Part shown: piece by piece, positions 30,936-60,067 of the stretch
Layout: every line of letters starts with the position of its first letter
Numbering within the stretch: the first letter of the stretch is position 1
Sequence record: PQ351811
DNA: 64,000 nucleotides
Strand: one strand, 5' to 3'
DNA from: Shigella phage SSG23
Translations under genes and position numbers: made by a program
Notes under the pieces: model-generated
Databases searched by the model: none
Told to the model about the DNA's origin: nothing
The model's input: the letters and a program-made list of their open reading frames with translations, nothing else

Positions 30936-30964
30936 TTGACAACCATAAACGACTATAGCATAAT
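30936..30964 (+). promoter_or_regulatory. early promoter cassette P1 (TTGACA-N17-CATAAT + conserved leader)
   Basis: GTGTTGACA...TATAGCATAAT, then CACATCGAAACGAAACAC and AGGAGAATCAAAAAAATG. Confidence 0.65.
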
Positions 30965-31004
30965 GCACACATCGAAACGAAACACACTTAGGAGAATCAA
31001 AAAA

Positions 31005-31382
31005 ATGATGATGATGTTTAAAGATAAATTCGAATGTCACTATACCCGTAACTTTGACTTAGTATCCCGCTACTACATTCATAAAGAAACTGGCACGCAA
31101 GTAGTTCTTGAATCTCACAGCGAAGTCGGATTCGATTCAACGAAAGTAGCAATTAGTGCTCGCTTCTGGGATAACGGAAAATTTGCTTATATTGCCTGGA
31201 ACGACGACGAAAATGTAATTACAGTAGCTTTCGGTGATGACTACTACACTAAAAAGACTTTTGATAGCAAGCCATCAAATGAATACCTGAAAGCGTATGT
31301 TCAGCACATGTTCCAACGTGTTCTGACCGGAATGGAAATCAATGTCATGAAAGACATTGTAGACGAAGTAAAATATTCTTAA
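31005..31382 (+). CDS. hypothetical protein
   Basis: ORF-track ORF 30933-31382 trimmed to first ATG after the RBS of the promoter leader. Confidence 0.55.
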   Translation: MMMMFKDKFECHYTRNFDLVSRYYIHKETGTQVVLESHSEVGFDSTKVAISARFWDNGKFAYIAWNDDENVITVAFGDDYYTKKTFDSKPSNEYLKAYVQHMFQRVLTGMEINVMKDIVDEVKYS

Positions 31383-31388
31383 AAACAG

Positions 31389-31417
31389 TTGACAACATGA
31401 AACGGGGGTAGTAAGAT
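31389..31417 (+). promoter_or_regulatory. early promoter cassette P2 with palindromic spacer
   Basis: TTGACA, 17 bp spacer, TAAGAT; inverted repeat GGGGGTA/TACCCCC spans the -10. Confidence 0.6.
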
Positions 31418-31448
31418 ACCCCCACAAACAAACGAAAGGAGAATCAAA

Positions 31449-31607
31449 ATGAAATTTATCGGTAAAACTTTTATGTTCGTAGCTGGTACTCTGTTTACTG
31501 CAACTCTGATAGCTGGTGGGTTGGATATCTTTACTGCCTTTGAAACTTTCGGGTATACTGTAGCGTCGGGTGCTCTCTTCGGATTAGGTTTAGCGATTAG
31601 CAAATAA
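31449..31607 (+). CDS. small hydrophobic membrane protein (52 aa)
   Basis: Short ORF (below ORF-track cutoff) after GGAGAATCAAAATG; MKFIGKTFMFVAGTLFTATLIAGG... Confidence 0.45.
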   Translation: MKFIGKTFMFVAGTLFTATLIAGGLDIFTAFETFGYTVASGALFGLGLAISK

Positions 31608-31616
31608 GGTGATAAT

Positions 31617-31811
31617 ATGGAATTGGATATGGTTAACGCAAAATTTATGGGTAAAGATAAGAAAGGTACAACATTTGTTATTAACAAAACATTGCTTCGC
31701 TCTGACCTTAAGTGGGTAACACAACAATTTGCGGAAGTCAATGAGGCTGTAGTGACCTGCTTTGTCGGTGATAAGAAAGTTTTTGAAATTGACCGTCGTG
31801 GGGGTGTCTAA
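31617..31811 (+). CDS. hypothetical protein
   Basis: 64 aa ORF with RBS, tightly packed. Confidence 0.45.
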   Translation: MELDMVNAKFMGKDKKGTTFVINKTLLRSDLKWVTQQFAEVNEAVVTCFVGDKKVFEIDRRGGV

Positions 31812-32008
31812 TGATCACTAAACTGTTTAGCAATACTTTGTTTCTGATTGCATTTGTTTTCTTTCTGTGTCTGATCATCGGTGTGATTGCAGTCGGTAGT
31901 TATTCCGGTATTACACTAGATGATTTTTGTACATTGGTTTTCTTCTCAAGTGTTCCTACACTCCTGATCGCTGTATGTGGTGCTTTTAGATGGATCTGTG
32001 ATCTATGA
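31811..32008 (+). CDS. small membrane protein
   Basis: 65 aa, two hydrophobic segments; start overlaps previous stop. Confidence 0.5.
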   Translation: MITKLFSNTLFLIAFVFFLCLIIGVIAVGSYSGITLDDFCTLVFFSSVPTLLIAVCGAFRWICDL

Positions 32009-32111
32009 CTGAACAGGAACGAATGATGTTGATAGGTGGACCGGAGTTCACTAAATTTGATGCAATTCTTATTGCGTTGGGGTTTCTTATGATCTGTTGT
32101 ATGGTGGCGCT

Positions 32112-32333
32112 ATGAGTAGCATAAAATATTTTGCTTTCTTGTGTTTTATGATGTTCTTTACATTCTTAGCATGTGTATTCTTTACATGGCTTGCTCATGT
32201 TGATAATGCAACCGGACCGTTTTACTTCTTTTGTGTGCTGTCGGTGTTGACTGGTGCTCTTGTTACGTGGATGATTCGAGATTGTTACGGAATGTATAAG
32301 TTTGAAAAGACTCGACCGAAATGGGGCAAATGA
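32112..32333 (+). CDS. small membrane protein
   Basis: ORF 32097-32333 trimmed to ATG after GGTGG; hydrophobic. Confidence 0.45.
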   Translation: MSSIKYFAFLCFMMFFTFLACVFFTWLAHVDNATGPFYFFCVLSVLTGALVTWMIRDCYGMYKFEKTRPKWGK

Positions 32334-32515
32334 TGAAACTATTTGCGTGGCTAATTATTTTAAATGTAATTATTAAGACTGTTCTCGCTGGTTTACTGAT
32401 GATACATAGCACGGAACCAGAAGAAGCATTAACGTATTGTGTTGCTTATGTGTTGGGATTCTTGCTTACTGCGTGGATGTGTGATGAATATCGAAGAATT
32501 GAGGTAAAACCATGA
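32330..32515 (+). CDS. small membrane protein
   Basis: ORF 32321-32515 trimmed; hydrophobic; overlaps neighbours by 4 nt. Confidence 0.45.
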   Translation: MMKLFAWLIILNVIIKTVLAGLLMIHSTEPEEALTYCVAYVLGFLLTAWMCDEYRRIEVKP

Positions 32516-32730
32516 AGATGACTTTTTATATCTTAGCAAGTATCATGCTTGTGATCTCTTCTGCACTATTTGCATTTCTTACCGTTTGGGGGATCTGCAC
32601 TGATGCGAAGCCGTGGGATATCGTAGAAAACACTGTTATGTTTATTATCAGTCTCATGTGTCTGTTTGATGCATTTAACTCTATCAAAGAAGAAGATCAA
32701 AAACGTCGCGAAAGAAAGCTATATAAATAA
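32512..32730 (+). CDS. small membrane protein
   Basis: 72 aa, two hydrophobic helices, charged C-terminus. Confidence 0.5.
   Translation: MKMTFYILASIMLVISSALFAFLTVWGICTDAKPWDIVENTVMFIISLMCLFDAFNSIKEEDQKRRERKLYK
32722..32729 (+). promoter_or_regulatory. candidate late promoter core TATAAATA (plus strand)
   Basis: Exact TATAAATA at end of preceding ORF, upstream of ORF-free structured region; could be chance in AT-rich DNA. Confidence 0.3.
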
Positions 32731-32735
32731 TAGTG

Positions 32736-32907
32736 AACTAAAACAGCGCGGTTAGAATGATTTGGACGTCACCTAGCCGCATTTATTGCAGCGTATGGGG
32801 TTAATCCGGTACGCTAAAGCATTCACTTGCTAGGCCGCTAGCAGGTTGGAGACAAGGAAGATTCGCTACCTTCCCTATAAGCCACTCTTCGGAGTGGCTT
32901 TTTTATT
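32736..32907 (+). ncRNA. candidate structured non-coding RNA / long 3'-UTR
   Basis: About 170 nt with no plausible ORF; several local hairpins (GCGTA/TACGC, TGCTAG/CTAGCA, GGAAG/CTTCC) ending in the terminator. Confidence 0.25.
32879..32907 (+). terminator. rho-independent terminator
   Basis: Hairpin AAGCCACTCTTCGGAGTGGCTT followed by TTTTTATT. Confidence 0.75.
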
Positions 32908-32932
32908 GCCTAAAATTTTTTAAAAAAAGTTG

Positions 32933-32961
32933 TTGACACCAAATCGTGCCTATAGCATAAT
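32933..32961 (+). promoter_or_regulatory. early promoter cassette P3
   Basis: GTTGTTGACA, 17 bp spacer, CATAAT, then CACCCATCGAAACGAAACAC leader and GGAGAATCAAATTATG. Confidence 0.65.
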
Positions 32962-33007
32962 ACACCCATCGAAACGAAACACACTTTCTTAAACGGAGAA
33001 TCAAATT

Positions 33008-33193
33008 ATGGCACGTCGCATCACTAAAGCACTGAAAGCAGTAAGCAAAGAAAACGTAGTAGCTATTCTGGTAATCTGGGGTTATAACGAAGAATCCGCT
33101 AAACAGAAAGTTGAAGCGGGGTTTGAACTGGCAGTAAAAGCAATGCCGAATGATGACTCTGTAGGGCTGGCAAATTATATCGCATATTTCTGA
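33008..33193 (+). CDS. hypothetical protein
   Basis: 61 aa ORF immediately after promoter-leader cassette. Confidence 0.55.
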   Translation: MARRITKALKAVSKENVVAILVIWGYNEESAKQKVEAGFELAVKAMPNDDSVGLANYIAYF

Positions 33194-33201
33194 TAAAAGT
33201 G

Positions 33202-33231
33202 TTGACAGGGGGAGGATAACTCCCCTACAAT
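33202..33231 (+). promoter_or_regulatory. early promoter cassette P4 with palindromic spacer
   Basis: TTGACA, GGGGGAGGATAACTCCCC palindrome, TACAAT, then CATCAACGAAACGGGAGAATCAAAATG. Confidence 0.6.
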
Positions 33232-33260
33232 ACAACCATCAACGAAACGGGAGAATCAAA

Positions 33261-33482
33261 ATGATCAACTTTAAAGAAGCAGCGAAAGAAATTATCGACT
33301 TTGAGCGCGAATTGTTTGAAATGGAACCAAATATGAGCAAACTGGAACTGGCTAACCAGATCTGGTACTCTAAAATGAATCCATCTGATCGCCTAGAAGT
33401 TATGAACATTGTAGGCGAAGTGAAAGGTAGTGCACTAATGAAACTCCGCGCTTGCCACGCTTACATCGCTGATCAACTGTAA
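33261..33482 (+). CDS. hypothetical protein
   Basis: 73 aa ORF after promoter cassette. Confidence 0.55.
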   Translation: MINFKEAAKEIIDFERELFEMEPNMSKLELANQIWYSKMNPSDRLEVMNIVGEVKGSALMKLRACHAYIADQL

Positions 33483-33493
33483 GAGGGTATATT

Positions 33494-33682
33494 ATGGGGG
33501 AGAAACCATTAGTACAACTAAGAGTACGCTATAACCAGATTTTAGCATTACTTAAGGCTGAGGGTGTAGATCCATCGGACCGCGAGGCTGTAAAAGCGTG
33601 TCTATCTGATACGGTACAACCAAAACAAAACTATGCTTGTTATATGTACTTTCAAAATCGATTGAATAACGTTAAGTGTTGA
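33494..33682 (+). CDS. hypothetical protein
   Basis: 62 aa ORF with RBS. Confidence 0.5.
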   Translation: MGEKPLVQLRVRYNQILALLKAEGVDPSDREAVKACLSDTVQPKQNYACYMYFQNRLNNVKC

Positions 33683-33691
33683 GGTGATACT

Positions 33692-33880
33692 ATGGAAGAC
33701 AAAATTGAACAATTACGCGAATCCGCTAAAGAGCATGGTATGAGCGAAGAGTTTGTAGAATGGTTTATTTCTAAAAAGGCTGATTCCTGCGGGTGCTTTA
33801 ACTTCATTACTATGTCCATTATGTGGGAAGGTTGGAAAGGTGCAGTAGAAACTGCTCTAGAAATTATGAAAAAAGACTAA
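33692..33880 (+). CDS. hypothetical protein
   Basis: 62 aa ORF with RBS. Confidence 0.5.
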   Translation: MEDKIEQLRESAKEHGMSEEFVEWFISKKADSCGCFNFITMSIMWEGWKGAVETALEIMKKD

Positions 33881-33888
33881 AAAAGTTG

Positions 33889-33917
33889 TTGACAATGGGT
33901 CGGGTGTATAGCATAAT
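33889..33917 (+). promoter_or_regulatory. early promoter cassette P5
   Basis: GTTGTTGACA, 17 bp spacer, CATAAT inside GGGTGTAT/ATACACCC inverted repeat, then CATCGAAACGAAACAC leader. Confidence 0.65.
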
Positions 33918-33959
33918 ACACCCATCGAAACGAAACACGAACTACTAAGGAGTATCAAA

Positions 33960-34286
33960 ATGAAACCAGTATCTGTTAAAGTTATCTTCTCTGAATCTTC
34001 TGTATTCGCTAACGCAAACGAAGTATTCCACTTCGAAGACTTCGAGCGTAAAGCACTGGACGCGGCAGCAAAAGCCTATGAAAGCGAATATGACAAAACT
34101 CAAATCGAGGTTACATTCGAAGACGGCACTACTTACGCTTGCCGCCTTGACCTGGGTGATCGTCTGTCTGGCTTCCGTCACCATGTAGAGAAGACAATCG
34201 CTTTCTCTAAAACCGAAAAAGGAAAACACTACTTTTCTGTATTCGGTACTGAAAATCTGGATTTCTTGAAAACGGTTTCTTTCTAA
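33960..34286 (+). CDS. hypothetical protein
   Basis: 108 aa ORF after promoter cassette. Confidence 0.55.
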   Translation: MKPVSVKVIFSESSVFANANEVFHFEDFERKALDAAAKAYESEYDKTQIEVTFEDGTTYACRLDLGDRLSGFRHHVEKTIAFSKTEKGKHYFSVFGTENLDFLKTVSF

Positions 34287-34294
34287 GGTATATT

Positions 34295-34477
34295 ATGAAA
34301 AAGATTAATTGGTTAGCGAACATAGGCGCGGTATGCGCCTTTAACATCCTCGGATGGATAATGTTACATTTTGATGATCGCGTTTCAAAATGTGAAGGTG
34401 GATTGATTCTAGGATCTGCTAGTGTTTTCATTATGCTGTATGCAATTATAGTTGACTTAAACCGCGAGGATTGTTAA
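34295..34477 (+). CDS. small membrane protein
   Basis: 60 aa, hydrophobic. Confidence 0.5.
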   Translation: MKKINWLANIGAVCAFNILGWIMLHFDDRVSKCEGGLILGSASVFIMLYAIIVDLNREDC

Positions 34478-34478
34478 T

Positions 34479-34679
34479 ATGAAAATTAATAATAGTGCCA
34501 TCAGATTTTCGAGCGTATATGCTAGTTTCATTGCGCTGGTCTGTATGTTTGTTTTTATTCCTGTTGTACTTCTTGGATATTGTGATATTGAAGTAGCATT
34601 GATTGCTGGGATCTATATGTGGGTTGCGGTCTTTGTTCTTTCAATTGTAATGTGCAAGATTATTGACTATACTGATTAA
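34479..34679 (+). CDS. small membrane protein
   Basis: 66 aa, two hydrophobic helices. Confidence 0.5.
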   Translation: MKINNSAIRFSSVYASFIALVCMFVFIPVVLLGYCDIEVALIAGIYMWVAVFVLSIVMCKIIDYTD

Positions 34680-34697
34680 CTGTGTGAGGATTATATT

Positions 34698-35018
34698 ATG
34701 AGCAAACTGTTTGAAACTCCGCGCGAAATTCTGATTGATAAACTGAAAGAGCGTGGTTTTAAGATCAAAGATGCAACCAAATACAGCAGAATTGATGAAA
34801 TTAAGTTGCATTCTCTTGATGAACTGGTAGAATATGTTGCGGCAGTGGCTGATCCGCAGTTTGATGTTATTGTAGGTGACGTTGAATATCTCGATAATGT
34901 ATATTCATTCTTCACTTATGGTAAAATTGTGTCTGTGAAAATTTCATTCTGTGAAAATGTGGAGGTACTTGCTAGTGAACCAGAAGAACCAACTAACAAC
35001 GGTCCTACGGCAGCGTAA
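34698..35018 (+). CDS. hypothetical protein
   Basis: 106 aa, after TGTGAGGATTATATTATG translation-initiation motif. Confidence 0.5.
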   Translation: MSKLFETPREILIDKLKERGFKIKDATKYSRIDEIKLHSLDELVEYVAAVADPQFDVIVGDVEYLDNVYSFFTYGKIVSVKISFCENVEVLASEPEEPTNNGPTAA

Positions 35019-35289
35019 CAAGGAAGACCGCCTGATTTATGCGCTGGCTGTTATCCTAGAAAAAGAATTACCGGATCTTGAGGTAGTCTTTACTGACAGA
35101 CCAGTAGGCCAACGTTACGGCGGATATGATAGCCTAGTTTATCCTTCATATAGCCTTGAAATGTGGGTAGAAGATTTTAAAAACCTGGCTGATACATCTA
35201 AACCGCTTTATCTATGGGATGTTGAGTATAATTGCGATCCTAACTGGCCTGGTATTAATGTTTATGCGTCTATGACTTTGAAGGTGTGA
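34951..35289 (+). CDS. hypothetical protein (start uncertain; may begin at GTG near 34975)
   Basis: 112 aa ORF overlapping previous gene; GGAGG RBS upstream of an in-frame GTG. Confidence 0.4.
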   Translation: MKMWRYLLVNQKNQLTTVLRQRNKEDRLIYALAVILEKELPDLEVVFTDRPVGQRYGGYDSLVYPSYSLEMWVEDFKNLADTSKPLYLWDVEYNCDPNWPGINVYASMTLKV

Positions 35290-35291
35290 TA

Positions 35292-35450
35292 ATGATTGAA
35301 CAAATGTTAACTGCAACGGTAATGGCTTTCTGTATGGTTGTTGTTATGATTGCAATGATCCCTAAAGAGAGAATGAGTCTTCTTGTCGCTGTCTGTGTGG
35401 GTGTTGTTTGCGGATGGTTTGGAATCGCTTTAGAACAAGCTCTGCGTTGA
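35292..35450 (+). CDS. small membrane protein (52 aa)
   Basis: Short hydrophobic ORF below track cutoff, starts 2 nt after previous stop. Confidence 0.4.
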   Translation: MIEQMLTATVMAFCMVVVMIAMIPKERMSLLVAVCVGVVCGWFGIALEQALR

Positions 35451-35511
35451 TTAACAAAGCGGGTAGGGGAATGTACTACCCGCACTAAATTAGCTAACTG
35501 GAGGGCTTTCT

Positions 35512-35700
35512 ATGGCGTTTTATCTATGGTTGATTATAGTATGCTTTGTGCTGGGGTTGTGCTTCTATACTGGCGTATTCTGTTTGATTGGCTGGATAAA
35601 CGGAGGATTCTCTAGTATCATTTTGCTTGCCGGATCAATCGCCTCGTTTCTGTTGATATGGCTTTTTTCTTATTTGTTTGGTGAATGGGATTTATTATGA
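35512..35700 (+). CDS. small membrane protein
   Basis: 62 aa, two TM-like helices. Confidence 0.5.
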   Translation: MAFYLWLIIVCFVLGLCFYTGVFCLIGWINGGFSSIILLAGSIASFLLIWLFSYLFGEWDLL

Positions 35701-35876
35701 ACAAATATATGTTTTGGGCGATCCTTGCCTATGTTGTGATTGCGGTAGTCTGGGGACTCTGTGTTATTGTCGCTTCCCTGATCTGGTGGGAATCACTTGG
35801 CGTGGGTTGCTTGATTAGTGGTGCATCCTCTCTTATTATGGGTGTGATTGTTGGGTTTCTTGTGTCGGGGGATTGA
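35685..35876 (+). CDS. small membrane protein
   Basis: 63 aa, hydrophobic, overlapping neighbours. Confidence 0.5.
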   Translation: MGFIMNKYMFWAILAYVVIAVVWGLCVIVASLIWWESLGVGCLISGASSLIMGVIVGFLVSGD

Positions 35877-36094
35877 CAATGGTTTTCTTCGGTCTTATTA
35901 TAATGGTGCTTAATGTCATTTGTGGCGTTGCTATGTTAGCTATGGCCTTTACTGTTCCTATGTCTGTTGATAGCGCCGCATCCGTAGGCGTGTTGGGAAT
36001 TGTAAACCTGTTTACCGCCCTAGCATGTTGGATCACCGGACGAGATGAGGTAATGTATTACTTTTATAAACGTAAACAGAGAAAAGGAAAATAA
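35873..36094 (+). CDS. small membrane protein
   Basis: 73 aa, hydrophobic, basic C-terminus. Confidence 0.5.
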   Translation: MTMVFFGLIIMVLNVICGVAMLAMAFTVPMSVDSAASVGVLGIVNLFTALACWITGRDEVMYYFYKRKQRKGK

Positions 36095-36095
36095 T

Positions 36096-36287: not shown

Positions 36288-36315
36288 ATATTATCACTCA
36301 CAAAGGGGGTGAATA

Positions 36316-36705: not shown

Positions 36706-36767
36706 AATATTAACCATCAACGGGGAGACAATCTAAGGATCTCTCCCCGTTCACTGGAGACTTTACC

Positions 36768-37378: not shown

Positions 37379-37390
37379 AAGAGGTGAATT

Positions 37391-37807: not shown

Positions 37808-37817
37808 TTTTTCATCA

Positions 37818-37849: not shown

Positions 37850-37893
37850 TAGTGTGATACGATGCAATCTCTTAATCAACTGAGGGTTTAATT

Positions 37894-39050: not shown

Positions 39051-39079
39051 TTGACAGCATGAAACGGGGGTAGTAATAT
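39051..39079 (+). promoter_or_regulatory. early promoter cassette P6 with palindromic spacer
   Basis: TTGACA, spacer with GGGGGTA/TACCCCC palindrome, TAATAT, then CATCGAAACAACAACGGAGTATTAAAATG. Confidence 0.6.
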
Positions 39080-39110
39080 ACCCCCATCGAAACAACAACG
39101 GAGTATTAAA

Positions 39111-39449
39111 ATGAGTGTTAAAGAAGTGTTTGTTTATACCGACTATGACGGGTGCGCCTATATCACCGCCGGAAAACTTTACCGATGTGAAATTATTCAT
39201 GGTACATTAGGTCGAATTATGTGCGATCCGGTTACAAAATTGTGGAAAAGCAATCCTAGTGAGCGAGAAACTCTTATTAACCTAGATCCAGACGGTTGTT
39301 CACATTTGGACTATAGAAAATGGCATATCGTGACACATGATGCTTATGGTATTCATCTTGCTACTAAAGAATTAACTATAGAGAAATTCAAGTTTAAAGA
39401 AATCCCGTTTGTATACTGGCTTCGCAATTTGTTCAAGAAAGGAGAATAA
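39111..39449 (+). CDS. hypothetical protein, YGYIKDD paralog 3
   Basis: 112 aa; AGKLYRCE...DPDGCSHLDYRKWHIV resembles the preceding two ORFs. Confidence 0.5.
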   Translation: MSVKEVFVYTDYDGCAYITAGKLYRCEIIHGTLGRIMCDPVTKLWKSNPSERETLINLDPDGCSHLDYRKWHIVTHDAYGIHLATKELTIEKFKFKEIPFVYWLRNLFKKGE

Positions 39450-39450: not shown

Positions 39451-39873
39451 ATGGAAACAATTAATGTACATGTTCGTCGTAGCAAGCTGCGTCGATTCTT
39501 CGAAACTGAAATGCGCAAAACTAATGCACAGATCAAAGAAAAGTGCTTGAATGATGGTTACGGTGAGTATATTTTCATTCGCTTTAGTCCGCATATGATC
39601 GACCGTCTAACCGATCGTCATATCGATGAACATAAGACAATGGAACTATTCAATAAGGTAGAAACTCGTTTACCTGAGATCTTCAAGTTCTTGAAAATGG
39701 AAGACCGACCTAACCGACTAGAAATCACTGACGGTAACATGTGGATCGGGATGACAGTAGATCTAATCGAAGACGGTAAACCGTATTACGGGCTATGCTG
39801 CCGAATGATTATAGAGAATCCAAAGCGACTGGCGGGTAAAATGTCGGCGGTTGTTTTGAAAGTGGACCAATAA
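39451..39873 (+). CDS. hypothetical protein
   Basis: ORF 39409-39873 trimmed to ATG after AAGGAGAATAAA RBS. Confidence 0.5.
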   Translation: METINVHVRRSKLRRFFETEMRKTNAQIKEKCLNDGYGEYIFIRFSPHMIDRLTDRHIDEHKTMELFNKVETRLPEIFKFLKMEDRPNRLEITDGNMWIGMTVDLIEDGKPYYGLCCRMIIENPKRLAGKMSAVVLKVDQ

Positions 39874-39895
39874 TGGAAATTGGTTAAATTAATGC

Positions 39896-39923
39896 TTGAC
39901 TTTCTGGTGATAGGGCTATATTA
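39896..39923 (+). promoter_or_regulatory. possible promoter (TGCTTGACT ... TATATT)
   Basis: TTGACT with a 15-16 bp spacer to TATATT upstream of the secreted SLT-like gene; spacing suboptimal. Confidence 0.35.
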
Positions 39924-39958
39924 TGGAATCAGAAAGTTAAGCCAAACAGGAGAAATTG

Positions 39959-40549
39959 ATGTTAAAAGTTCTAAAAGCGATAGTATTGAGTCTGTCACTA
40001 GCCGTTGGTGCTACACACGCATCGACTAGCGCACCGATCAAAAAAGCGCCGATAGACAACTTTACAGCACACCAACTAGATAATTTACATTTCGCCTATC
40101 AATACGGTGAGCAATTCGAGAAAAGCGGTAAGTTGAAAAATGACCATCCGAATATTCGCTATAACGGAAAGGGTTTAGGTCACATCCTGGCGGGTATCGC
40201 ATGGCAAGAATCAAGCGCGGGTGCAAACTTAGCACCAAAGAAAAATCATCATGCTTATGGATTATTTCAAAATTACCTTAAAACGGTGAAAGCGAAAAAT
40301 GCAAAGCGCGGTGTTAAAATGAGTGATCGCCAGACTATCAACTTTATCATGAATCGCGAGGTTTCTGCATTCTACGCGATGGATGAGTTAGCATACTGGC
40401 TGGATGTTCGAAACGGTAATATTCGACTCGCGCTAGCTTCTTACAATGCAGGATGGAACTATAAAGCCGGGTTAGGTTATGCTGATGACGTACTAAAAAA
40501 GGCTAACCATCTAAAGAGTAAAGGCATTCTTAAAACTAAACGCTATTGA
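39959..40549 (+). CDS. secreted lytic transglycosylase-like protein (SLT domain)
   Basis: N-terminal signal peptide (LSLAVGATHA); AWQESS...GLFQ resembles the SLT catalytic ES...GLMQ motif. Confidence 0.55.
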   Translation: MLKVLKAIVLSLSLAVGATHASTSAPIKKAPIDNFTAHQLDNLHFAYQYGEQFEKSGKLKNDHPNIRYNGKGLGHILAGIAWQESSAGANLAPKKNHHAYGLFQNYLKTVKAKNAKRGVKMSDRQTINFIMNREVSAFYAMDELAYWLDVRNGNIRLALASYNAGWNYKAGLGYADDVLKKANHLKSKGILKTKRY

Positions 40550-45593: not shown

Positions 45594-45602
45594 AACATAA
45601 TC

Positions 45603-45636
45603 AAAAGCCATCCGAAAGGGTGGCTTTTTCGTTTTT
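45603..45636 (+). terminator. rho-independent terminator
   Basis: Hairpin AAGCCATCCGAAAGGGTGGCTT followed by TTTTCGTTTTT. Confidence 0.75.
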
Positions 45637-45641
45637 AGGTG

Positions 45642-45670
45642 TTGACAACCGGATCGTGGTATAGCATAAT
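45642..45670 (+). promoter_or_regulatory. early promoter cassette P7
   Basis: GGTGTTGACA, 17 bp spacer, CATAAT, then CACACATCGACAACAAAAGGAGAACCAAAATG. Confidence 0.65.
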
Positions 45671-45700
45671 GCACACATCGACAACAAAAGGAGAACCAAA

Positions 45701-45910
45701 ATGATTAATCCCGTAGCCGCAGCACTTGCTTCCGAAGAAACTTTGAAGTATATGGTAGAACACGCAGCAAAGAAGGGAGAAATTGTTACTGCCGATGAGA
45801 TCGTAGAAACCATGCTTCGCGATCCGAAGGGTAACACAGCAAAGTTTTTCGGTGATCATCTTAAGCTGGCTTACAAAACAATTATGGAGACCGTAAAGAA
45901 TGCAAAATGA
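45701..45910 (+). CDS. hypothetical protein
   Basis: 69 aa ORF after promoter cassette. Confidence 0.5.
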   Translation: MINPVAAALASEETLKYMVEHAAKKGEIVTADEIVETMLRDPKGNTAKFFGDHLKLAYKTIMETVKNAK

Positions 45911-46866: not shown

Positions 46867-46884
46867 AAATTTTCTTAGAAAGTG

Positions 46885-46913
46885 TTGACAGCGATCCGGT
46901 GTTATTGCATAAT
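46885..46913 (+). promoter_or_regulatory. early promoter cassette P8
   Basis: AGTGTTGACA, 17 bp spacer, CATAAT, then CACCCATCGAAACGAGATACAC and GGAGAATCAAAAATG. Confidence 0.65.
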
Positions 46914-46954
46914 ACACCCATCGAAACGAGATACACTTTCTAGGAGAATCAAAA

Positions 46955-47176
46955 ATGGCAACTGTTAAAATTATCAAATCTTCCGCTGGCTTCGGTTTCA
47001 TGCGTGGTGCTAAGTACCCGATGATTATTGAAAACGTTGCCATCGAAGATGGTATGGCTAAAGTGACCAGCCGTCAATTGTTCGAAGCTGGTGTTAAAAC
47101 TGCTGAATCATGGGCGCTTCGCTATCCTAACAAAACATGGTCTTTCTTCCTGAATGGTGAAGCTGAGATCATCTAA
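46955..47176 (+). CDS. hypothetical protein
   Basis: 73 aa ORF after promoter cassette, upstream of gp38-like gene. Confidence 0.5.
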   Translation: MATVKIIKSSAGFGFMRGAKYPMIIENVAIEDGMAKVTSRQLFEAGVKTAESWALRYPNKTWSFFLNGEAEII

Positions 47177-48010: not shown

Positions 48011-48016
48011 TTTTAT

Positions 48017-48048
48017 GGGCTATCCTTCGGGGTAGCCTTTTTTGTTTT
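48017..48048 (+). terminator. rho-independent terminator
   Basis: Hairpin GGGCTATCCTTCGGGGTAGCC followed by TTTTTTGTTTT. Confidence 0.75.
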
Positions 48049-48053
48049 GGGTG

Positions 48054-48081
48054 TTGACAAAGATAATCACAATGCTATAAT
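48054..48081 (+). promoter_or_regulatory. early promoter cassette P9 (extended -10)
   Basis: GTGTTGACA, 16 bp spacer, TGCTATAAT, then AAGGAGAATCAAAGATG. Confidence 0.65.
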
Positions 48082-48110
48082 GCACGCATACCAACTAAGG
48101 AGAATCAAAG

Positions 48111-48401
48111 ATGACCACTGAACAATTAATCAAACATATCCGCAACATTATTTGGGATCTGTCTGGTGATAAAGAGGAACAAGCTGAACGCATTTTAGCT
48201 AAACTCTATAAGCGCCGTGACCGTGGAGTATCAGCAAAGAAAGTGGAAACTTTCAAAGAGTTATCTTTCATCGAAGCTAAAAGGGATGGATTGATTTATC
48301 AGTTGACAGATGGTTACTGGTGCTATGATAATACTCGTTATGACACAGCAACTGATGCATTAAAAGCATGTAATGACCATCTTCGCAAAACTACCATTTG
48401 A
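48111..48401 (+). CDS. hypothetical protein
   Basis: 96 aa ORF after promoter cassette. Confidence 0.5.
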   Translation: MTTEQLIKHIRNIIWDLSGDKEEQAERILAKLYKRRDRGVSAKKVETFKELSFIEAKRDGLIYQLTDGYWCYDNTRYDTATDALKACNDHLRKTTI

Positions 48402-50113: not shown

Positions 50114-50129
50114 AATCATAAAAAAGTTG

Positions 50130-50158
50130 TTGACAGGGGATCGCCGATCCCCTATACT
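50130..50158 (+). promoter_or_regulatory. early promoter cassette P10 with palindromic spacer
   Basis: TTGACA, spacer GGGGATCGCCGATCCCC (perfect palindrome), TATACT, then CACATCAAAACGAAACAC leader. Confidence 0.65.
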
Positions 50159-50199
50159 ACACACATCAAAACGAAACACACTTTTTAAGGAGAATCAAA

Positions 50200-50478
50200 A
50201 TGAGCAACCTGTCTTTCGCTAAAGTAGAAATTTCTAAAACTCGCGGTGGCATCAAAATCAAAACTTCCAATATCACTTCCTGCCGTGGTTGCGACCAGTT
50301 TGCGCGTGACCTTGCTGTGAAGCTGGGTATGAAAACCTTTACGGTGGAGAGCGGATCTAACTGGACCACTCTGATTGTTACTGCCGCTTGGATCAATGGC
50401 GAGTATGTAGAAAAAGCATACTTTGACATTTTCTATGACTATGAAGAAAAATGCTTTTACGCACTGCAAGACATGTAA
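50200..50478 (+). CDS. hypothetical protein
   Basis: 92 aa ORF after promoter cassette. Confidence 0.5.
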   Translation: MSNLSFAKVEISKTRGGIKIKTSNITSCRGCDQFARDLAVKLGMKTFTVESGSNWTTLIVTAAWINGEYVEKAYFDIFYDYEEKCFYALQDM

Positions 50479-50797: not shown

Positions 50798-50805
50798 AAA
50801 AACAG

Positions 50806-50834
50806 TTGACATGAAAATGCGGTTATCCTATAAT
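50806..50834 (+). promoter_or_regulatory. early promoter cassette P11 (consensus TTGACA-N17-TATAAT)
   Basis: CAGTTGACA, 17 bp spacer, TATAAT, then GAGGATTATATTATG. Confidence 0.7.
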
Positions 50835-50868
50835 AGCCGCATCAAATGAACGATGTGAGGATTATATT

Positions 50869-51177
50869 ATGTTTATCTCTTCTGCTACTCCAGTTAAAGT
50901 TTATGGCGAAACTGTGTATCTTCCGGCTGGCTATCGCTATGTTATTGTTGACCGTTACGGTGTAGTATATGCTTTTAAAGGCCGTCCGGTTGAGATTGAT
51001 GCTGAATATTGTACATGGGGATATAAAGCCGCATACATGGATATTCCTGATCTTGGAGTGCGCTTAGGAAGATTTGATAATGATGTTAAACCATGCTTGA
51101 TTAAGTATGCATCCTATGGTAAAACTGTTAAACCAAATAGCGTCGGCTGGATTGATGACGGCGTTAACGTGAAATAA
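50869..51177 (+). CDS. hypothetical protein
   Basis: 102 aa ORF after promoter. Confidence 0.5.
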   Translation: MFISSATPVKVYGETVYLPAGYRYVIVDRYGVVYAFKGRPVEIDAEYCTWGYKAAYMDIPDLGVRLGRFDNDVKPCLIKYASYGKTVKPNSVGWIDDGVNVK

Positions 51178-54027: not shown

Positions 54028-54030
54028 TAG

Positions 54031-54059
54031 TTGACAATAAGAAATGGGAGTAGTAAAAT
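54031..54059 (+). promoter_or_regulatory. early promoter cassette P12 with palindromic spacer
   Basis: TTGACA, spacer with GGGAGTA/TACTCCC inverted repeat, TAAAAT, then GGAGAATCAACAATG. Confidence 0.6.
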
Positions 54060-54090
54060 ACTCCCATCTAATCAAGAAGGAGAATCAACA

Positions 54091-54351
54091 ATGCGTAAGA
54101 TGTTTAAAGCTGGTGTGGCCTATGTTTTTAAATCTGAGCAAGCACATAAAGACTTCTTAGATGATGAATACGAAGGGGTGAAAGATACCTACGAAGTCAT
54201 CAAGAATGGGTTTACTGTTCTTAAAGTGTCACCTGTTGGTTATGTAAGTGAAATAGCGGTTGATGGGAAAACATACACCGCTAAAGACTTTGACCCGCGT
54301 TGGGAATTTATGCTGCTTCCGTGTGAGCGCATTCTGTTCCGTGCTGTTTAA
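54091..54351 (+). CDS. hypothetical protein, paralog family A member 1
   Basis: ORF trimmed to ATG after leader; FKAGVAYVFKSEQ...GFTVLKV...DGKTYTAKDF. Confidence 0.5.
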   Translation: MRKMFKAGVAYVFKSEQAHKDFLDDEYEGVKDTYEVIKNGFTVLKVSPVGYVSEIAVDGKTYTAKDFDPRWEFMLLPCERILFRAV

Positions 54352-54938: not shown

Positions 54939-54941
54939 CGC

Positions 54942-54970
54942 TTGACATGATGAAACGGGAGTAGTAAGAT
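54942..54970 (+). promoter_or_regulatory. early promoter cassette P13 with palindromic spacer
   Basis: GCTTGACA, spacer with GGGAGTA/TACTCCC, TAAGAT, then GAGAGGATTATATTATG. Confidence 0.6.
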
Positions 54971-55001
54971 ACTCCCATCTAAACAACGAGAGGATTATAT
55001 T

Positions 55002-56180
55002 ATGGCTAAATTCTTTGAAGGTCATTACTATGCATTCCGTGAAGGCGGTAAAGATGAGTTTCTAGACTTTTCTCGCTATTCAATTATTCTGACCGATGCT
55101 TCGCGCCGTGGTCATATTCGAGTTGCTGAAATCGTAGAAAAGGGCTTTAAAGTATTAGAAAAAGATGACCACGGTCATGTTATTACTATTGAAGCTGGAG
55201 ATGTAGTTTATTCCGCTGAGGATATCGTTTATTATTGGTCTACTATGATTATGCACAATGAGCGCAAATACTTTAAACGTATCTCAAAAGAGGCATACGA
55301 AGCGATGAACAAGAAAGAGGATGCAATGCCGACTTACTTTGAAAAAGGTAAATGTTATTCGTTTACCCCAGAAGGTTTGCAAGAATTTAAGCGATTCTGG
55401 GGAGAGCATGACCCAGAACACAAAGAAGCCATGAAACTTGCTGATTTTGTCGAATATGGCTTTTTGGTTGAAGAAGAATTGCACGGATCAGCTACCATGA
55501 TCACCGCGAAAGGTGAAACCGTTAAGGCAGATCGTTTTTGTGATCAATGGGCTTGTGTGTTTGACGGTGGCGAATTTGAATACTTCGCGGAAATCACCAA
55601 CCATCAATTTCATTCTATGCAAGCGGAAGGTCAGCGATTTAAAGTAGGCGAACGCTACAAGCCAAATCAGCATAATTTGCCTCATTGGTTTAACACTGAA
55701 ACCGTATCCAGCCATGTTATTGAAATTGTTCAAAAGCTGGAACATGGATTTAAGGTAACTAAAGTAGATCCTTTCGGAAGTGTTGACGCGGTTGAAGTTG
55801 ATGGTGTAGAATATACTCCCAAATCTTTCGGGCTTTGCTGGTATCATCTGATCAGCAATGATGAACGTTATAACTTTGTTGAACTGCCATCTGAACCGGA
55901 AGAAGCACTAGAGGATCATGATCATCTATCTGAACTGGTTAAGCTGTTTGGTGATCTGCCGGATGGTGTAGGGGTGGCGGTAATGGGTGAAGGTGCGGTT
56001 ATCCGAAACCTGAAAGACTTTAAAAAGTTCTTGATTGACATGCTGCCTAAACTTGATGATAATCTCGATACAGATATTCAGAATCGCAAAGAAATTGTTA
56101 AAGAGACTGAAAAAGAGATCGAAGCGATTCGAGCAATTCGCCAGAAGGTGAAAGCAGTAAAGAAAAAAGTTCGTGCTTGA
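55002..56180 (+). CDS. hypothetical protein, paralog family A member 3 (internally repeated)
   Basis: 392 aa; repeats of the family A domain (FEGHYYAFREG...GFKVLEKD..., NERKYFKRISK, ...GFKVTKVD...); C-terminal coiled coil. Confidence 0.55.
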   Translation: MAKFFEGHYYAFREGGKDEFLDFSRYSIILTDASRRGHIRVAEIVEKGFKVLEKDDHGHVITIEAGDVVYSAEDIVYYWSTMIMHNERKYFKRISKEAYEAMNKKEDAMPTYFEKGKCYSFTPEGLQEFKRFWGEHDPEHKEAMKLADFVEYGFLVEEELHGSATMITAKGETVKADRFCDQWACVFDGGEFEYFAEITNHQFHSMQAEGQRFKVGERYKPNQHNLPHWFNTETVSSHVIEIVQKLEHGFKVTKVDPFGSVDAVEVDGVEYTPKSFGLCWYHLISNDERYNFVELPSEPEEALEDHDHLSELVKLFGDLPDGVGVAVMGEGAVIRNLKDFKKFLIDMLPKLDDNLDTDIQNRKEIVKETEKEIEAIRAIRQKVKAVKKKVRA

Positions 56181-56204
56181 CATGCGAAGGGAGTATGCTA
56201 TAAT
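56177..56204 (+). promoter_or_regulatory. early promoter cassette P14 (extended -10, palindromic)
   Basis: GCTTGACA, 16 bp spacer, TGCTATAAT flanked by GGGAGTAT/ATACTCCC. Confidence 0.65.
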
Positions 56205-56234
56205 ACTCCCACTTAACAACGAGAGGATTATATT

Positions 56235-56729
56235 ATGTGGGTACAAGATGTTTGGTATACTGTAACTAAAGAAAACCTTGACGCATTCAGCGACCAATCT
56301 TGCGCTAATAGTTCAATTGCTGGTATCCTTACTGATGTGTTTGGTGGTGTTGATAAAATTCGTTTTAAAGTTGTTGTTGGTTCGATGGGGGGTGTAAAAG
56401 ACCTATACACCGAAGATAAAGACCTTGATCTTGAACTTCGTCTTCGTATTGATAATGCAAGTCTAGGTTATTGGTTTGAAGATAACGAATATGAATACTT
56501 CACCCCAGCAATTAAAGTTTTTGCGACTAAACTGGAAGCTGTACTAAATATCCGACCAATTAATGTTGACGGTTATATTATCAAAAATATTCAGGATTGG
56601 GAGTTGTATCTAGATCAGATTATCCGAAATAGTAAGCAGGAAGCCGCTAATAAGAAGCGACAAGAGATTAAACAGCTTAAGGCTGAACTGGAAGCTAAAG
56701 AAAAAGAATTAGCAGAACTGGTAAAATAA
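56235..56729 (+). CDS. hypothetical protein
   Basis: 164 aa with C-terminal coiled coil (KQLKAELEAKEKELAEL). Confidence 0.5.
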   Translation: MWVQDVWYTVTKENLDAFSDQSCANSSIAGILTDVFGGVDKIRFKVVVGSMGGVKDLYTEDKDLDLELRLRIDNASLGYWFEDNEYEYFTPAIKVFATKLEAVLNIRPINVDGYIIKNIQDWELYLDQIIRNSKQEAANKKRQEIKQLKAELEAKEKELAELVK

Positions 56730-56738
56730 CTATCAACG

Positions 56739-56762
56739 AGCGGGAGAAATCCCGCTTTTTCA
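56739..56762 (+). terminator. rho-independent terminator
   Basis: Hairpin GCGGGAGAAATCCCGC followed by TTTTTC. Confidence 0.6.
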
Positions 56763-56773
56763 TAGGTGATACA

Positions 56774-58636: not shown

Positions 58637-58640
58637 ATTT

Positions 58641-58673
58641 CAGCCGATCCGAAAGGGTCGGCTTTTTCGTTTT
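58641..58673 (+). terminator. rho-independent terminator
   Basis: Hairpin CAGCCGATCCGAAAGGGTCGGCTT followed by TTTTCGTTTT. Confidence 0.75.
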
Positions 58674-58679
58674 GGGGTG

Positions 58680-58707
58680 TTGACAACATGATTAGATAAT
58701 GTATAAT
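58680..58707 (+). promoter_or_regulatory. early promoter cassette P15
   Basis: GGGGTGTTGACA, 16 bp spacer, TATAAT, then CTCACATCGAAAACAACGAGAGGACAACATG. Confidence 0.65.
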
Positions 58708-58736
58708 GCTCACATCGAAAACAACGAGAGGACAAC

Positions 58737-59276
58737 ATGATGATGTTTTGTGTACTGAGCAAAGAAGTTAAACTTCGTAAACTGGAAATTGGCGATGGTG
58801 TTGTTGTTAAAATGCACGCTAGCACATTGACTAGTTTTAATTTAAAGGAAAGTTTTTTTATTAGAGGAACGGTGGTTAATATCTGCTGGAGTAAAGGCGA
58901 AGGAATCCGTAGCTTTTGCGTAATTGACGATGATAATAACCTGTATGTGATTCGCTATCATAATAATTCTATATTGGTCTATACCGACAATTCACGAGAA
59001 TTGTATACTCTTGAATTTGTTAAGCGTACTGATTGCGATCGATTTGTTCGTGCTTATGAAGAAGATGGCTGTTTTGCGACTGAAACAGAAACACATGAAT
59101 ATGTTCCTATGGAAGTAGGAGCCGAAATTAAACACAAGATCACGGATCGTATTTTTAAGGTTGTGGCGGTTGCTCATACTCAATTTGTAGCGCAAGCGCC
59201 GGATGAAGAATTTATTATCTACAATATTGGTAATGCAAGTTCTCACTTTCATAATGTACAATATCGCGATCTTTGA
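58737..59276 (+). CDS. hypothetical protein
   Basis: 179 aa ORF after promoter cassette. Confidence 0.5.
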   Translation: MMMFCVLSKEVKLRKLEIGDGVVVKMHASTLTSFNLKESFFIRGTVVNICWSKGEGIRSFCVIDDDNNLYVIRYHNNSILVYTDNSRELYTLEFVKRTDCDRFVRAYEEDGCFATETETHEYVPMEVGAEIKHKITDRIFKVVAVAHTQFVAQAPDEEFIIYNIGNASSHFHNVQYRDL

Positions 59277-59287
59277 AATAATGTGAG

Positions 59288-59839
59288 GTGACTATGAAAT
59301 CATTAAACCGTAAACGTAAAGCACAACGACACATGGAACACGCAAAATCAATTAATGTTGATATGACATTAGAACATATTGATGATGATTCATGTTATGA
59401 TGATGAACCAACAAATAAGATCCCTGTATGGATGGTTACGGTAAGAATTGACAATAAACAGATCGAAGAGACACACGATGCTTTAGCCTTGTTTCACGAA
59501 TGGCATCCGGTTAATATCGGGTGGGAGGAAAACAAAGCAAAAGGTCAATACTTCCTCACCTGTTCGTGTGGTGTAGCCGGATGCGCTGGGTATTGGGAAC
59601 CTGTTGTGATTCGGGTTAAAAAGGATACTGTACAATGGTCTGTGCGTAAAGAGCAGGGATACAGCAAAGGTGTGATCGGTACTGGCGAGAATGTGATTTA
59701 TCTTAAACGTAAAGATTACGAAGAGTGCCGGAAGTTTATTTTGAATATGCTGCGTTCTTATCCAGATGACAATTTCATGTTTGCCGGAGAGTACCTACCA
59801 GGCCGCCTGTGGTTGAAATCTCTCGAAAAATTTAAATAA
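59288..59839 (+). CDS. hypothetical protein
   Basis: 183 aa ORF with GAGGTGA RBS. Confidence 0.5.
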   Translation: MTMKSLNRKRKAQRHMEHAKSINVDMTLEHIDDDSCYDDEPTNKIPVWMVTVRIDNKQIEETHDALALFHEWHPVNIGWEENKAKGQYFLTCSCGVAGCAGYWEPVVIRVKKDTVQWSVRKEQGYSKGVIGTGENVIYLKRKDYEECRKFILNMLRSYPDDNFMFAGEYLPGRLWLKSLEKFK

Positions 59840-59843
59840 ATGC

Positions 59844-59872
59844 TTGACGGGGATCGCGAGATCCCCTATACT
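59844..59872 (+). promoter_or_regulatory. early promoter cassette P16 with palindromic spacer
   Basis: GCTTGACG, spacer GGGGATCGCGAGATCCCC, TATACT, then CACACATCAAGACGAGATAC and GGAGAATCAAATATG. Confidence 0.6.
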
Positions 59873-59914
59873 ACACACATCAAGACGAGATACAACTTTA
59901 CAGGAGAATCAAAT

Positions 59915-60067
59915 ATGTGGACTTTACTGATTTGGGAAACTGAAAACGCACAAGTAGAAATCCGTGAATACGAATACCTAAGCCCAGCTTATCTATTGGC
60001 ATCTCGCGGCGGTTACTATAAAGCGCAGATTGTAAACGAGTTCGGGGTAATTGAATATGAGTTCTGA
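59915..60067 (+). CDS. small hypothetical protein (50 aa)
   Basis: ORF 59840-60067 trimmed to ATG after promoter leader. Confidence 0.4.
   Translation: MWTLLIWETENAQVEIREYEYLSPAYLLASRGGYYKAQIVNEFGVIEYEF

Follow-up and report, generated by a model that had tools for sequence, protein, structure and literature searches.

Promoter-early stem-loops (PeSLs) were first described in phages phi1 and RB49 (Arbiol, Comeau, Kutateladze, Adamia, Krisch 2010, Genome Biol Evol 2:140, PMC2839356) and were later extended to other T4-like phages (Comeau et al. 2014, PMC4122927). Their published anatomy consists of an A/T-rich upstream stretch, a promoter with identity to the sigma70 consensus, a Shine-Dalgarno sequence (SD) and start codon at the 3′ end, and a stem-loop, often polyG/polyC, that occupies one of five positions relative to the promoter hexamers (PMC2839356). 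Phi1 is reported to have 52 copies and RB49 51, most of them 5′ of ORFans in hyperplastic regions, and the few found in core modules lie beside non-core genes (PMC2839356). The stem-loop of PeSL211/210 cut lacZ expression about as much as rrnB T1 did, a wild-type clone of PeSL206/205 gave ~13,000 Miller units, and −35 or −10 mutations arose in most of the tested PeSL clones, which implies a very strong, toxic promoter (PMC2839356). PCR and sequencing also gave evidence of PeSL mini-circles whose junctions are crossovers between PeSLs (PMC2839356), and the role of PeSLs as modular boundaries and recombination points is the central claim of both papers (PMC2839356, PMC4122927). RB49 itself lacks motA and recognizable middle promoters (Nolan et al., PMC1524935). 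Here we analyze a dispersed family of promoter-leader cassettes in a 64,000-nucleotide stretch of Shigella phage SSG23 (PQ351811), referred to below as the window.

We conclude that these cassettes are PeSLs of RB49-like T4-type phages that start and insulate small early transcription units, and we put the probability of this at roughly nine in ten. The family is already known, and finding it here is a correct rediscovery of a described element in another, newly sequenced phage of the genus from which it was described. The sigma70 promoter, the A/T-rich upstream tract, the stem-loop, the intergenic site, the copy number and the synteny with phi1 and RB49 are all found. A preliminary description of the window had read the cassettes as a sigma70-like early promoter family used as modular gene-cassette boundaries, and both readings agree with the literature, the first with the sigma70 consensus and promoter strength of phi1 and RB49 PeSLs (PMC2839356) and the second with the central PeSL claim (PMC2839356, PMC4122927). 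Naming each cassette by the first position of its −35 hexamer (Table 1), we found that 50130, 59844 and 33202 align throughout with PeSL212/210, PeSL206/205 and PeSL193/191 of phi1, experimentally tested elements that we located as the gaps ORF212/210, ORF206/205 and ORF193/191.

The window was matched to Shigella phage SFHK24 (PQ351812.1, Straboviridae, genus Krischvirus), and synteny was followed through seven genomes, namely this one and six relatives: phi1, RB49, JSE, JK32, Brandy and G2248. SFHK24 is 100% identical to window positions 30000–50000, and its record matches 1–30059 and 18000–62000 exactly. Over 30000–50000, identity to Brandy, JK32, JSE and phi1 is 92–96% (93.7% for phi1 and JSE), and to RB49 it is 91–98% over aligned blocks; for the sister phages phi1 and RB49 taken together, identity to the window is put at 93–96%. 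By profile match, the plus-strand cassettes, 39896 aside, have a positional orthologue in all six relatives, with 48054 in G2248 as the one real exception; the weak 39896 reaches the cut-off of E ≤ 1e-3 in JK32 only.

A strict near-consensus sigma70 scan and inspection of every intergenic gap gave 17 plus-strand cassettes between 30893 and 59917 and a single minus-strand cassette at 17715–17820, which bears out the initial count of at least 16 plus-strand copies and one on the minus strand. All 18 fill an intergenic gap, running from the upstream stop codon to an SD and a same-strand ATG that lies 29–46 nt past the −10. The order of parts is constant: an A/T-rich stretch, TTGACA, a 16–18 nt spacer, the −10, aCaCcCATc, a short A/C-rich leader, SD and ATG, with an aligned consensus over the 18 cassettes of A/T-rich..aaAg.tG TTGACA N17 tAtAAT aCaCcCATc.AAaCaA. 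The −35 is an exact TTGACA at 15 of the 17 plus-strand sites and TTGACT or TTGACG at the other two. The −10 hexamers match TATAAT at 4–6 of 6 positions, and their second base is always A and their sixth always T. Directly 5′ of the −35 the consensus reads ..aaatttttaaataAg.tG, and runs of A or T occur in every copy.

These motifs are well in excess of expectation, with 12 occurrences of TGTTGACA against 3.0 expected and 8 of TTGACA-N15-19-TAYAMT against 0.36 expected. A profile (nhmmer) built from the 18 window cassettes was used to search 164 kb of the 168.8-kb genome, window included, and returned 42 matches at E ≤ 1e-3, 25 of them outside the window and hence absent from the profile's training set. 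The same profile found nothing at E ≤ 1e-2 in 20 composition-preserving shuffles. The family is therefore real and far beyond chance by the genome-wide motif search that the preliminary description had proposed as a check. On the early-transcription strand lie 41 of the 42 matches, which cluster at 30.9–34, 39, 45.6–59.9, 96.9–98.7, 116–125 and 133–140 kb in ORFan-rich regions; one copy sits within the baseplate block, 5′ of three non-structural genes. The window itself is divided by strand: 1–27 kb carries late structural genes on the minus strand, and ~30–64 kb, corresponding to ORF044–ORF126 of phi1 and RB49, is a long run of small plus-strand early genes. Most of these are hypothetical open reading frames (ORFs); the named ones are gene 57B, dmd, regB, vs, tk, gene 38, dam, nrdC, gene 49, nrdD and nrdG.

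The copies are less alike than the label "near-identical" in the preliminary description implied. Mean pairwise identity is 52% (range 36–79%, 68 aligned columns), and the closest paralogue of each window cassette is 62–83% identical. Pairs that reach 80–88% identity over ~80 nt drive unrelated proteins (BLOSUM62 local scores 15–30), with one exception, so the cassettes are independent of the genes they drive. We also considered a transposon-like repeat, such as a miniature inverted-repeat element (MITE), and ruled it out: neither terminal inverted repeats nor target duplications are present, a single copy departs from the shared orientation, and each is precisely fitted between a stop and a start codon.

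The stem-loop takes several positions. A canonical G/C-rich hairpin followed by a U/T-tract stands upstream of only 30936, 32933, 45642, 48054, 58680 and the minus-strand copy, that is, of 5 of 17 plus-strand cassettes and the minus-strand one, or about a third, not the "about half" first estimated. In 10–11 of the remaining cassettes a G/C-rich stem-loop of −10 to −13 kcal/mol lies within the promoter, with z-scores of −2.9 to −5.1 against dinucleotide shuffles. The stem occupies the spacer in 33202, 50130 and 59844 (e.g., GGGGATCGCCGATCCCC) and covers the −10 in 31389, 33889, 39051, 50806, 54031, 54942 and 56177 (e.g., GGGGGTAGTAAGATACCCCC), with weaker versions in 46885 and 39896. The window tally is thus 6 upstream terminators, 3 spacer stems, 7–8 stems over the −10 and 1–2 cassettes with a weak stem only (46885, 39896). 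Genome-wide, z is below −2 in 26 of 45 promoter cores and 12 of 45 upstream flanks, and in one or the other for 35 of 45. These positions agree with the published PeSL subclasses, in which the stem is upstream, in the spacer or overlapping a hexamer. The preliminary description overlooked the promoter-internal stem-loops, which form the defining half of the element.

Stems over the −10 vary in sequence while keeping their pairing, the variants being GGGGGTA/TACCCCC, GGGAGTA/TACTCCC, GGGTGTAT/ATACACCC, GGGGATAT/ATATCCCC, GGGAGTAT/ATACTCCC and GCGGTTAT/ATAGCCGC. Counts were made on 7 and 9 related sequences for two registers. In one, both partners have changed in 3 of the 8 pairs, with 94.6% of cells paired against 32–71% for slid partners, and the other is 100% paired with one pair changed from G:C to A:U; since the samples are small and the sequences related, this covariation is supportive and not conclusive. 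As a comparison of sequences, the conservation of the stems favours a structural role, as RNA hairpin or cruciform, over a sequence-specific operator.

Between the predicted start and the SD, the leader is 50% A, 23% C, 10% G and 17% U, compared with 31% A, 19% C, 22% G and 29% T for the genome. Leaders have a median length of 26 nt and form weaker structure than their shuffled counterparts, which makes the leader an unstructured, translation-favouring one whose purpose may be to keep the initiation region single-stranded. A conserved initial transcribed tract had been proposed; what is general across copies is aCaCcCATc followed by an A/C-rich tract, and the full CAYCGAAACGAAACAC is present at only 5 plus-strand sites at ≤2 mismatches. 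A second variant, CATACCGAAACGAA, is common elsewhere in the genome. We therefore rejected the leader motif as a discrete element and treat the leader as an unstructured A/C-rich spacer with subfamily signatures. The proposal of two stereotyped initiation regions fits most copies, with GGAGAATCAAA or a one-base variant in 12 of 17 plus-strand cassettes and GAGGATTATATTATG in 3 of 17, and fails for 39896 and 58680, which have neither. Genome-wide, 26 of 43 cassettes end in GGAG(A/T)A(T/C)(C/T)AA and 7 of 43 in GAGGAWWWTATT. A search of the whole window with Rfam at gathering thresholds, leaders included, found no known RNA family.

Taken together with the published work, this anatomy suggests how a cassette might operate. 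Host sigma70 RNA polymerase would read each one immediately after infection from a promoter made up of an A/T-rich UP-like tract, TTGACA, a 16–18 nt spacer, (T/C)AtAAT and a C-rich discriminator, with transcription probably starting at the A of CATC. The stem-loop, whether an upstream hairpin with a T-run terminator or a stem within the promoter (in the spacer or over the −10), would terminate or attenuate read-through transcription arriving from upstream, and the stems over the −10 may do so too. Because the stem-loop is upstream of the start site, it would not be part of the RNA that the cassette itself initiates and would appear only in read-through RNA. With read-through stopped, each small group of ORFans would become an insulated early transcription unit. 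The transcript is predicted to open with a 23–40 nt A/C-rich, G-poor, unstructured leader and to end that leader in one of the two stereotyped SD/ATG blocks, which should give efficient translation. Finally, the ~45 copies share 60–90 bp of patchy homology in one orientation, and owing to this the phage recombination system could cross over between copies, so that genes may be deleted, inserted or swapped with their regulation intact.

To see how far the last step is reflected in the window, we aligned it with the six relatives and drew up a hand-curated list of 21 mosaic boundaries, of which 6 fall 40 bp or less from a PeSL, where chance would place 8.7% (p = 0.007). When only boundaries at gene junctions are counted, 6 of 13 coincide with PeSL junctions, the expectation being 22% (p = 0.047). 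A check of cassette boundaries against breakpoints had been called for, and the enrichment it gives is modest. The hot-spot role first suggested for the repeats agrees with the central claim of the PeSL papers, mini-circles included, to which our comparison adds modest independent support. In G2248, window positions 47177–48086, comprising gene 38 and both flanking terminators, are replaced by one PeSL of the spacer-stem subclass (G2248 27725–27761), with the crossover in the leader CATACCAACTAAGGAG; the replaced cassette is 48054. The gene 38 adhesin is missing from the syntenic position in G2248. In JK32 a two-gene module (58759–59825) is 73–80% identical to the window and lies exactly between PeSL 58680 and PeSL 59844. 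At 59826 identity jumps from ~72–80%, or from unaligned sequence, to 96–98% in Brandy, phi1, RB49, JK32 and G2248, with JSE collinear, and there is another step at 45597. Next to the latter, a 2148-nt hypothetical plus-strand ORF at 43446–45593, whose right edge is the PeSL beginning at 45594, is ~95% identical in Brandy and ~75% in JK32 and G2248, is a ~70-nt remnant in RB49 and JSE, and is largely deleted in phi1 (window 43539–45385); it is a fast-evolving accessory gene. Relatives also carry homing/HNH endonuclease genes of 0.5–1.2 kb, which SFHK24 lacks, at ~28393, ~36667, ~37852 and ~57644 (after gene 2, after the endolysin gene, before nrdC.11 and, in JSE, inside nrdD). Boundaries at 34483, 43539, 47704 and 49294 do not involve a PeSL.

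Several points weigh against reading the cassettes as insulating, recombining PeSLs. The evidence on promoters, start sites, terminators and mini-circles was all obtained with phi1 and RB49, and terminator activity has been shown for one spacer-type stem only. The spacer and −10 stems are followed by UAUACU/UAUAAU or AUCGAAAC and not by a U-tract, and thus fall outside the canonical definition of an intrinsic terminator. The boundary list is hand-curated, and the covariation counts come from few sequences. The cassettes are positionally stable across the seven genomes, and most large indels are homing-endonuclease insertions or intragenic (43539, 47704, 34483) and not PeSL exchanges; the recombination role is therefore only modestly supported in the window. 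These last observations, together with the modest boundary enrichment, are what would be expected if the cassettes were just strong early promoters with strong ribosome-binding sites, alike through selection or common descent and with no special part in gene mobility. We consider this unlikely, since the similarity extends into the spacer, discriminator and leader of cassettes driving unrelated genes, the G2248 swap has its crossover inside a leader, identity steps fall exactly at the cassette edges 45597, 58759 and 59826, and published sequencing of mini-circle junctions shows crossovers between PeSLs. It is also conceivable that the promoter-internal inverted repeats act as DNA, either as a shut-off operator for a dimeric phage protein or as a cruciform or recombinase target. 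Their place between the −35 and −10 or over the −10 is a classic operator position, and the missing U-tract fits as well. This we regard as quite improbable: compensatory changes among paralogues alter the stem sequence and keep the pairing, stem position shifts among subclasses, in a third of the cassettes an upstream terminator takes its place, and a spacer-type stem-loop lowered downstream lacZ about as much as rrnB T1.

A further question is whether cassette transcripts are also switched off, as the preliminary description proposed in suggesting that the A-rich leader holds an RNase or translational repressor site. RegB/S1 targets a single-stranded 11-mer, GGAGRAYARAA (T4 consensus GGAGAAUAAAA), in which GGA is invariant and A is strongly preferred at positions 6, 8, 10 and 11 (Durand et al. 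2006, PMC1702504). The main cassette SD block, GGAGAAUCAAA, agrees with this 11-mer at 10 of 11 positions, the mismatch being a C at position 8; 9 of 17 cassettes match at 10/11 and 12 of 17 at ≥9/11. Sites with at most one mismatch precede 9 of 17 cassette-first genes versus 1 of 64 other plus-strand genes (30–64 kb), which is regB, and 1 of 24 late minus-strand genes, which is the gene behind the minus-strand cassette. This enrichment is not independent evidence, because the SD is part of the repeated homologous cassette. The SD of regB at 39441 is a perfect match to the T4 consensus. The site (39441–39451 and orthologues) is polymorphic, with GGAG, GGAGAAUAAAA, in SFHK24, Brandy and JK32 and GGAU, GGAUAAUAAAA, in RB49, phi1, JSE and G2248; the RB49 sequence agrees with a review stating that RB49 RegB cleaves its own GGAU SD in vivo (PMC3014915). 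The regB product is a candidate trans-acting partner of the cassette SD, and the best candidate for a post-transcriptional signal would be the SD block GGAGAAUCAAA, not the CAYCGAAACGAAACAC tract, with RegB cleavage serving as early shut-off.

As an addition to the PeSL reading that does not exclude it, GGAGAAUCAAA(AUG) would be a RegB/S1 site through which promoter-proximal genes are translationally inactivated minutes into infection, and CAUCGAAACGAAACAC would be an unstructured spacer. We hold this tentatively, at somewhat short of even odds. The SD block fits the target and is enriched at cassette-first genes, the window carries regB, the leaders have the A-rich, unstructured character that RegB/S1 needs, and RB49 RegB is reported to cleave its own SD in vivo. 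As with the RegB/S1 sites of T4 early mRNAs, a GGAG in an early-gene SD precedes an A-rich 7-mer in single-stranded RNA. These candidate sites differ from those of T4 in having C and not the preferred A at position 8 in nearly all copies, and RegB/S1 acts very poorly on T4 gene 1 RNA, which carries C at both 8 and 10 (PMC1702504). GGAG with an A-rich spacer also makes a good ribosome-binding site in its own right, and the type-2 block GAGGAUUAUAUUAUG is a poor match. A bolder version, which we think rather doubtful, is that the mobile PeSL is a complete expression-timing module combining promoter, insulator and a RegB/S1 off switch (GGAGAAUCAAA), with GAGGAUUAUAUUAUG under other control such as the RegA repressor. 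If true, any ORF captured behind a cassette would automatically gain immediate-early, self-limiting expression, an idea absent from the PeSL papers, which do not mention a RegB-like SD (PMC2839356, PMC4122927).

Table 1. Cassettes and associated features of the window (positions 5′ to 3′ on the strand given).
Feature	Coordinates	Strand	−35	−10	Stem-loop or terminator	SD or initiation region	ATG	Remarks
Upstream-terminator PeSL	30893..31007	+	TTGACA 30936–30941	CATAAT 30959–30964	hairpin 30899–30919 + T-run	GGAGAATCAAA 30991	31005	nhmmer E = 1.3e-11
−10-spanning-stem PeSL	31383..31451	+	31389–31394	TAAGAT 31412–31417	GGGGGTAGTAAGATACCCCC 31404–31423; −12.5 kcal/mol; core z = −3.6	GGAGAATCAAA 31438	31449	
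Upstream-terminator PeSL	32879..33010	+	32933–32938	CATAAT 32956–32961	hairpin 32879–32900 + T-run	GGAGAATCAAA 32995	33008	overlapped by probably spurious annotated minus-strand coding sequence 32903–33004
Spacer-stem PeSL	33194..33263	+	33202–33207	TACAAT 33226–33231	GGGGGAGGATAACTCCCC 33208–33225; z = −2.9	GGAGAATCAAA 33250	33261	
−10-spanning-stem PeSL	33881..33962	+	33889–33894	CATAAT 33912–33917	GGGTGTATAGCATAATACACCC 33902–33923; z = −3.0	GGAGTATCAAA	33960	
−10-spanning-stem PeSL	39051..39113	+	39051–39056	TAATAT 39074–39079	39066–39085; z = −3.3	GGAGTATTAAA	39111	drives ORF directly 5′ of regB
regB, GGAG-specific endoribonuclease gene	39451..39873	+				GGAGAATAAAA 39441		
Weakest family member	39874..39961	+	TTGACT 39896–39901	TATTAT 39919–39924	long imperfect hairpin over promoter		39959	nhmmer E = 3e-3; directly 3′ of regB
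Upstream-terminator PeSL	45594..45703	+	45642–45647	CATAAT 45665–45670	hairpin 45603–45628 + T-run	GGAGAACCAAA 45690	45701	right edge of 2-kb block deleted or divergent in relatives
Weak-stem PeSL	46867..46957	+	46885–46890	CATAAT 46908–46913	weak stem only, over −10; z = −1.3	GGAGAATCAAA 46943	46955	
Upstream-terminator PeSL	48011..48113	+	48054–48059	TATAAT 48076–48081	hairpin 48017–48038 + T-run	GGAGAATCAAA 48099	48111	
Spacer-stem PeSL	50114..50202	+	50130–50135	TATACT 50153–50158	GGGGATCGCCGATCCCC 50136–50152; z = −4.6	GGAGAATCAAA 50189	50200	near relative of phi1 PeSL212/210 and 206/205
−10-spanning-stem PeSL	50798..50871	+	50806–50811	TATAAT 50829–50834	ATGCGGTTATCCTATAATAGCCGCAT 50817–50842; z = −4.3	type 2, GAGGATTATATTATG	50869	
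−10-spanning-stem PeSL	54028..54093	+	54031–54036	TAAAAT 54054–54059	54044–54067; z = −4.7	GGAGAATCAAC	54091	
−10-spanning-stem PeSL	54939..55004	+	54942–54947	TAAGAT 54965–54970	54957–54976; z = −3.1	type 2	55002	
−10-spanning-stem PeSL	56170..56237	+	56177–56182	TATAAT 56199–56204	GGGAGTATGCTATAATACTCCC 56189–56210; z = −4.4	type 2	56235	−35 overlaps upstream stop codon
Upstream-terminator PeSL	58637..58739	+	58680–58685	TATAAT 58702–58707	hairpin 58642–58663 + T-run	GAGG	58737	left edge of JK32-divergent module
Spacer-stem PeSL	59840..59917	+	TTGACG 59844–59849	TATACT 59867–59872	GGGGATCGCGAGATCCCC 59849–59866; z = −5.1	GGAGAATCAAA 59903	59915	
Sole minus-strand PeSL	17715..17820	-	17774–17769	TATAAT 17752–17747	upstream terminator ~17816–17789; upstream z = −4.2	GGAGGATAAAT 17729	17717	nhmmer E = 3.2e-10; in baseplate gene block; drives three small non-structural genes, one for a DNA methyltransferase

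Five further plus-strand gaps (35451–35511, 36706–36767, 37808–37893, 47177–47230 and 56730–56773) have a stem-loop or terminator but no consensus promoter, and may be degenerate or terminator-only relatives of the cassettes; the gap at 35451 holds TTAACA and the stem GCGGGTAG...CTACCCGC. Three very small coding sequences annotated in the SFHK24 record, at 32903–33004 (minus), 50127–50222 (plus) and 42758–42913 (minus), may be spurious. The first two, which probably are spurious, share sequence with PeSL promoters or leaders, and the apparent real starts there are the ATGs at 33008 and 50200. The third is at the position where phi1 and RB49 annotate rI, and the gap 42669–42757 holds the late-promoter motif TATAAATA at 42696.

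The same late-promoter motif, TATAAATA, occurs at 32722–32729 (plus strand), at the start of the gene-free stretch 32722–32908, which ends with the intrinsic terminator at 32879–32900 and its T-run. A 178-nt RNA from this stretch has a folding energy of −65.9 kcal/mol (z = −4.3). Its 3′ 110 nt are identical in the seven Krischvirus genomes, and the few changes are clustered in one hairpin loop. Rfam at gathering threshold gave no family for 32722–32908, and no tRNA was found there; a permissive Rfam scan of 32600–33020 returned only sub-threshold matches resembling small RNAs, most of them overlapping the terminator. We consider this stretch a candidate late-expressed structured small RNA. A tRNA scan of the whole window found zero genes, consistent with RB49, which to our knowledge has none.

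PeSLs are among the few concrete sequence mechanisms proposed for the modular evolution of large virulent phages, as conserved regulatory linkers would make accessory genes swappable with expression and insulation intact. Recognizing them in a Krischvirus genome aids annotation, defines early transcription units and marks safe engineering sites in therapeutic phages. The finding leaves the current understanding of PeSLs unchanged, and the sole new angle is the possible coupling of the cassettes through RegB to the inactivation of early mRNA.

Among other known systems, T4 early promoters and the early-promoter/stem-loop elements of T-even internal-protein loci (Repoila 1994, as discussed in PMC2839356) share with the window cassettes a strong promoter for host polymerase and an A-rich UP-like element. 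They too fire at once after infection 5′ of small non-essential genes, and have been proposed as shuffling linkers. T4 early promoters differ in their distinct −35 region, GTTTAC, whereas the RB49 type has G at −33, giving TTGACA, and T or C at −12 (PMC1524935). The T-even elements, with weaker A/T-rich stems, are analogues of PeSLs and not homologues. Morons and integron cassettes are also comparable, being small accessory genes that either bring a promoter and terminator with them or enter at a conserved recombination site, which lets new genes be expressed with neighbours left undisturbed. However, no integrase and no attC or attI-type site is known for PeSLs, whose exchange is thought to be general homologous recombination between repeats, and the flanks of morons are not conserved repeats. 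The closest match by far is with the PeSLs of phi1, RB49 and JSE, which belong to the same genus and sequence family and occupy syntenic sites. They have the same promoter, A/T-rich tract and 3′ SD with ATG, the same GGGG...CCCC stem-loops, the same clustering at ORFans in hyperplastic regions in ~45–50 copies, and an association with indels and replacements that is only modest in the window. Nothing essential differs, other than that the elements in the window are positionally very stable and most of its indels come from homing endonucleases.

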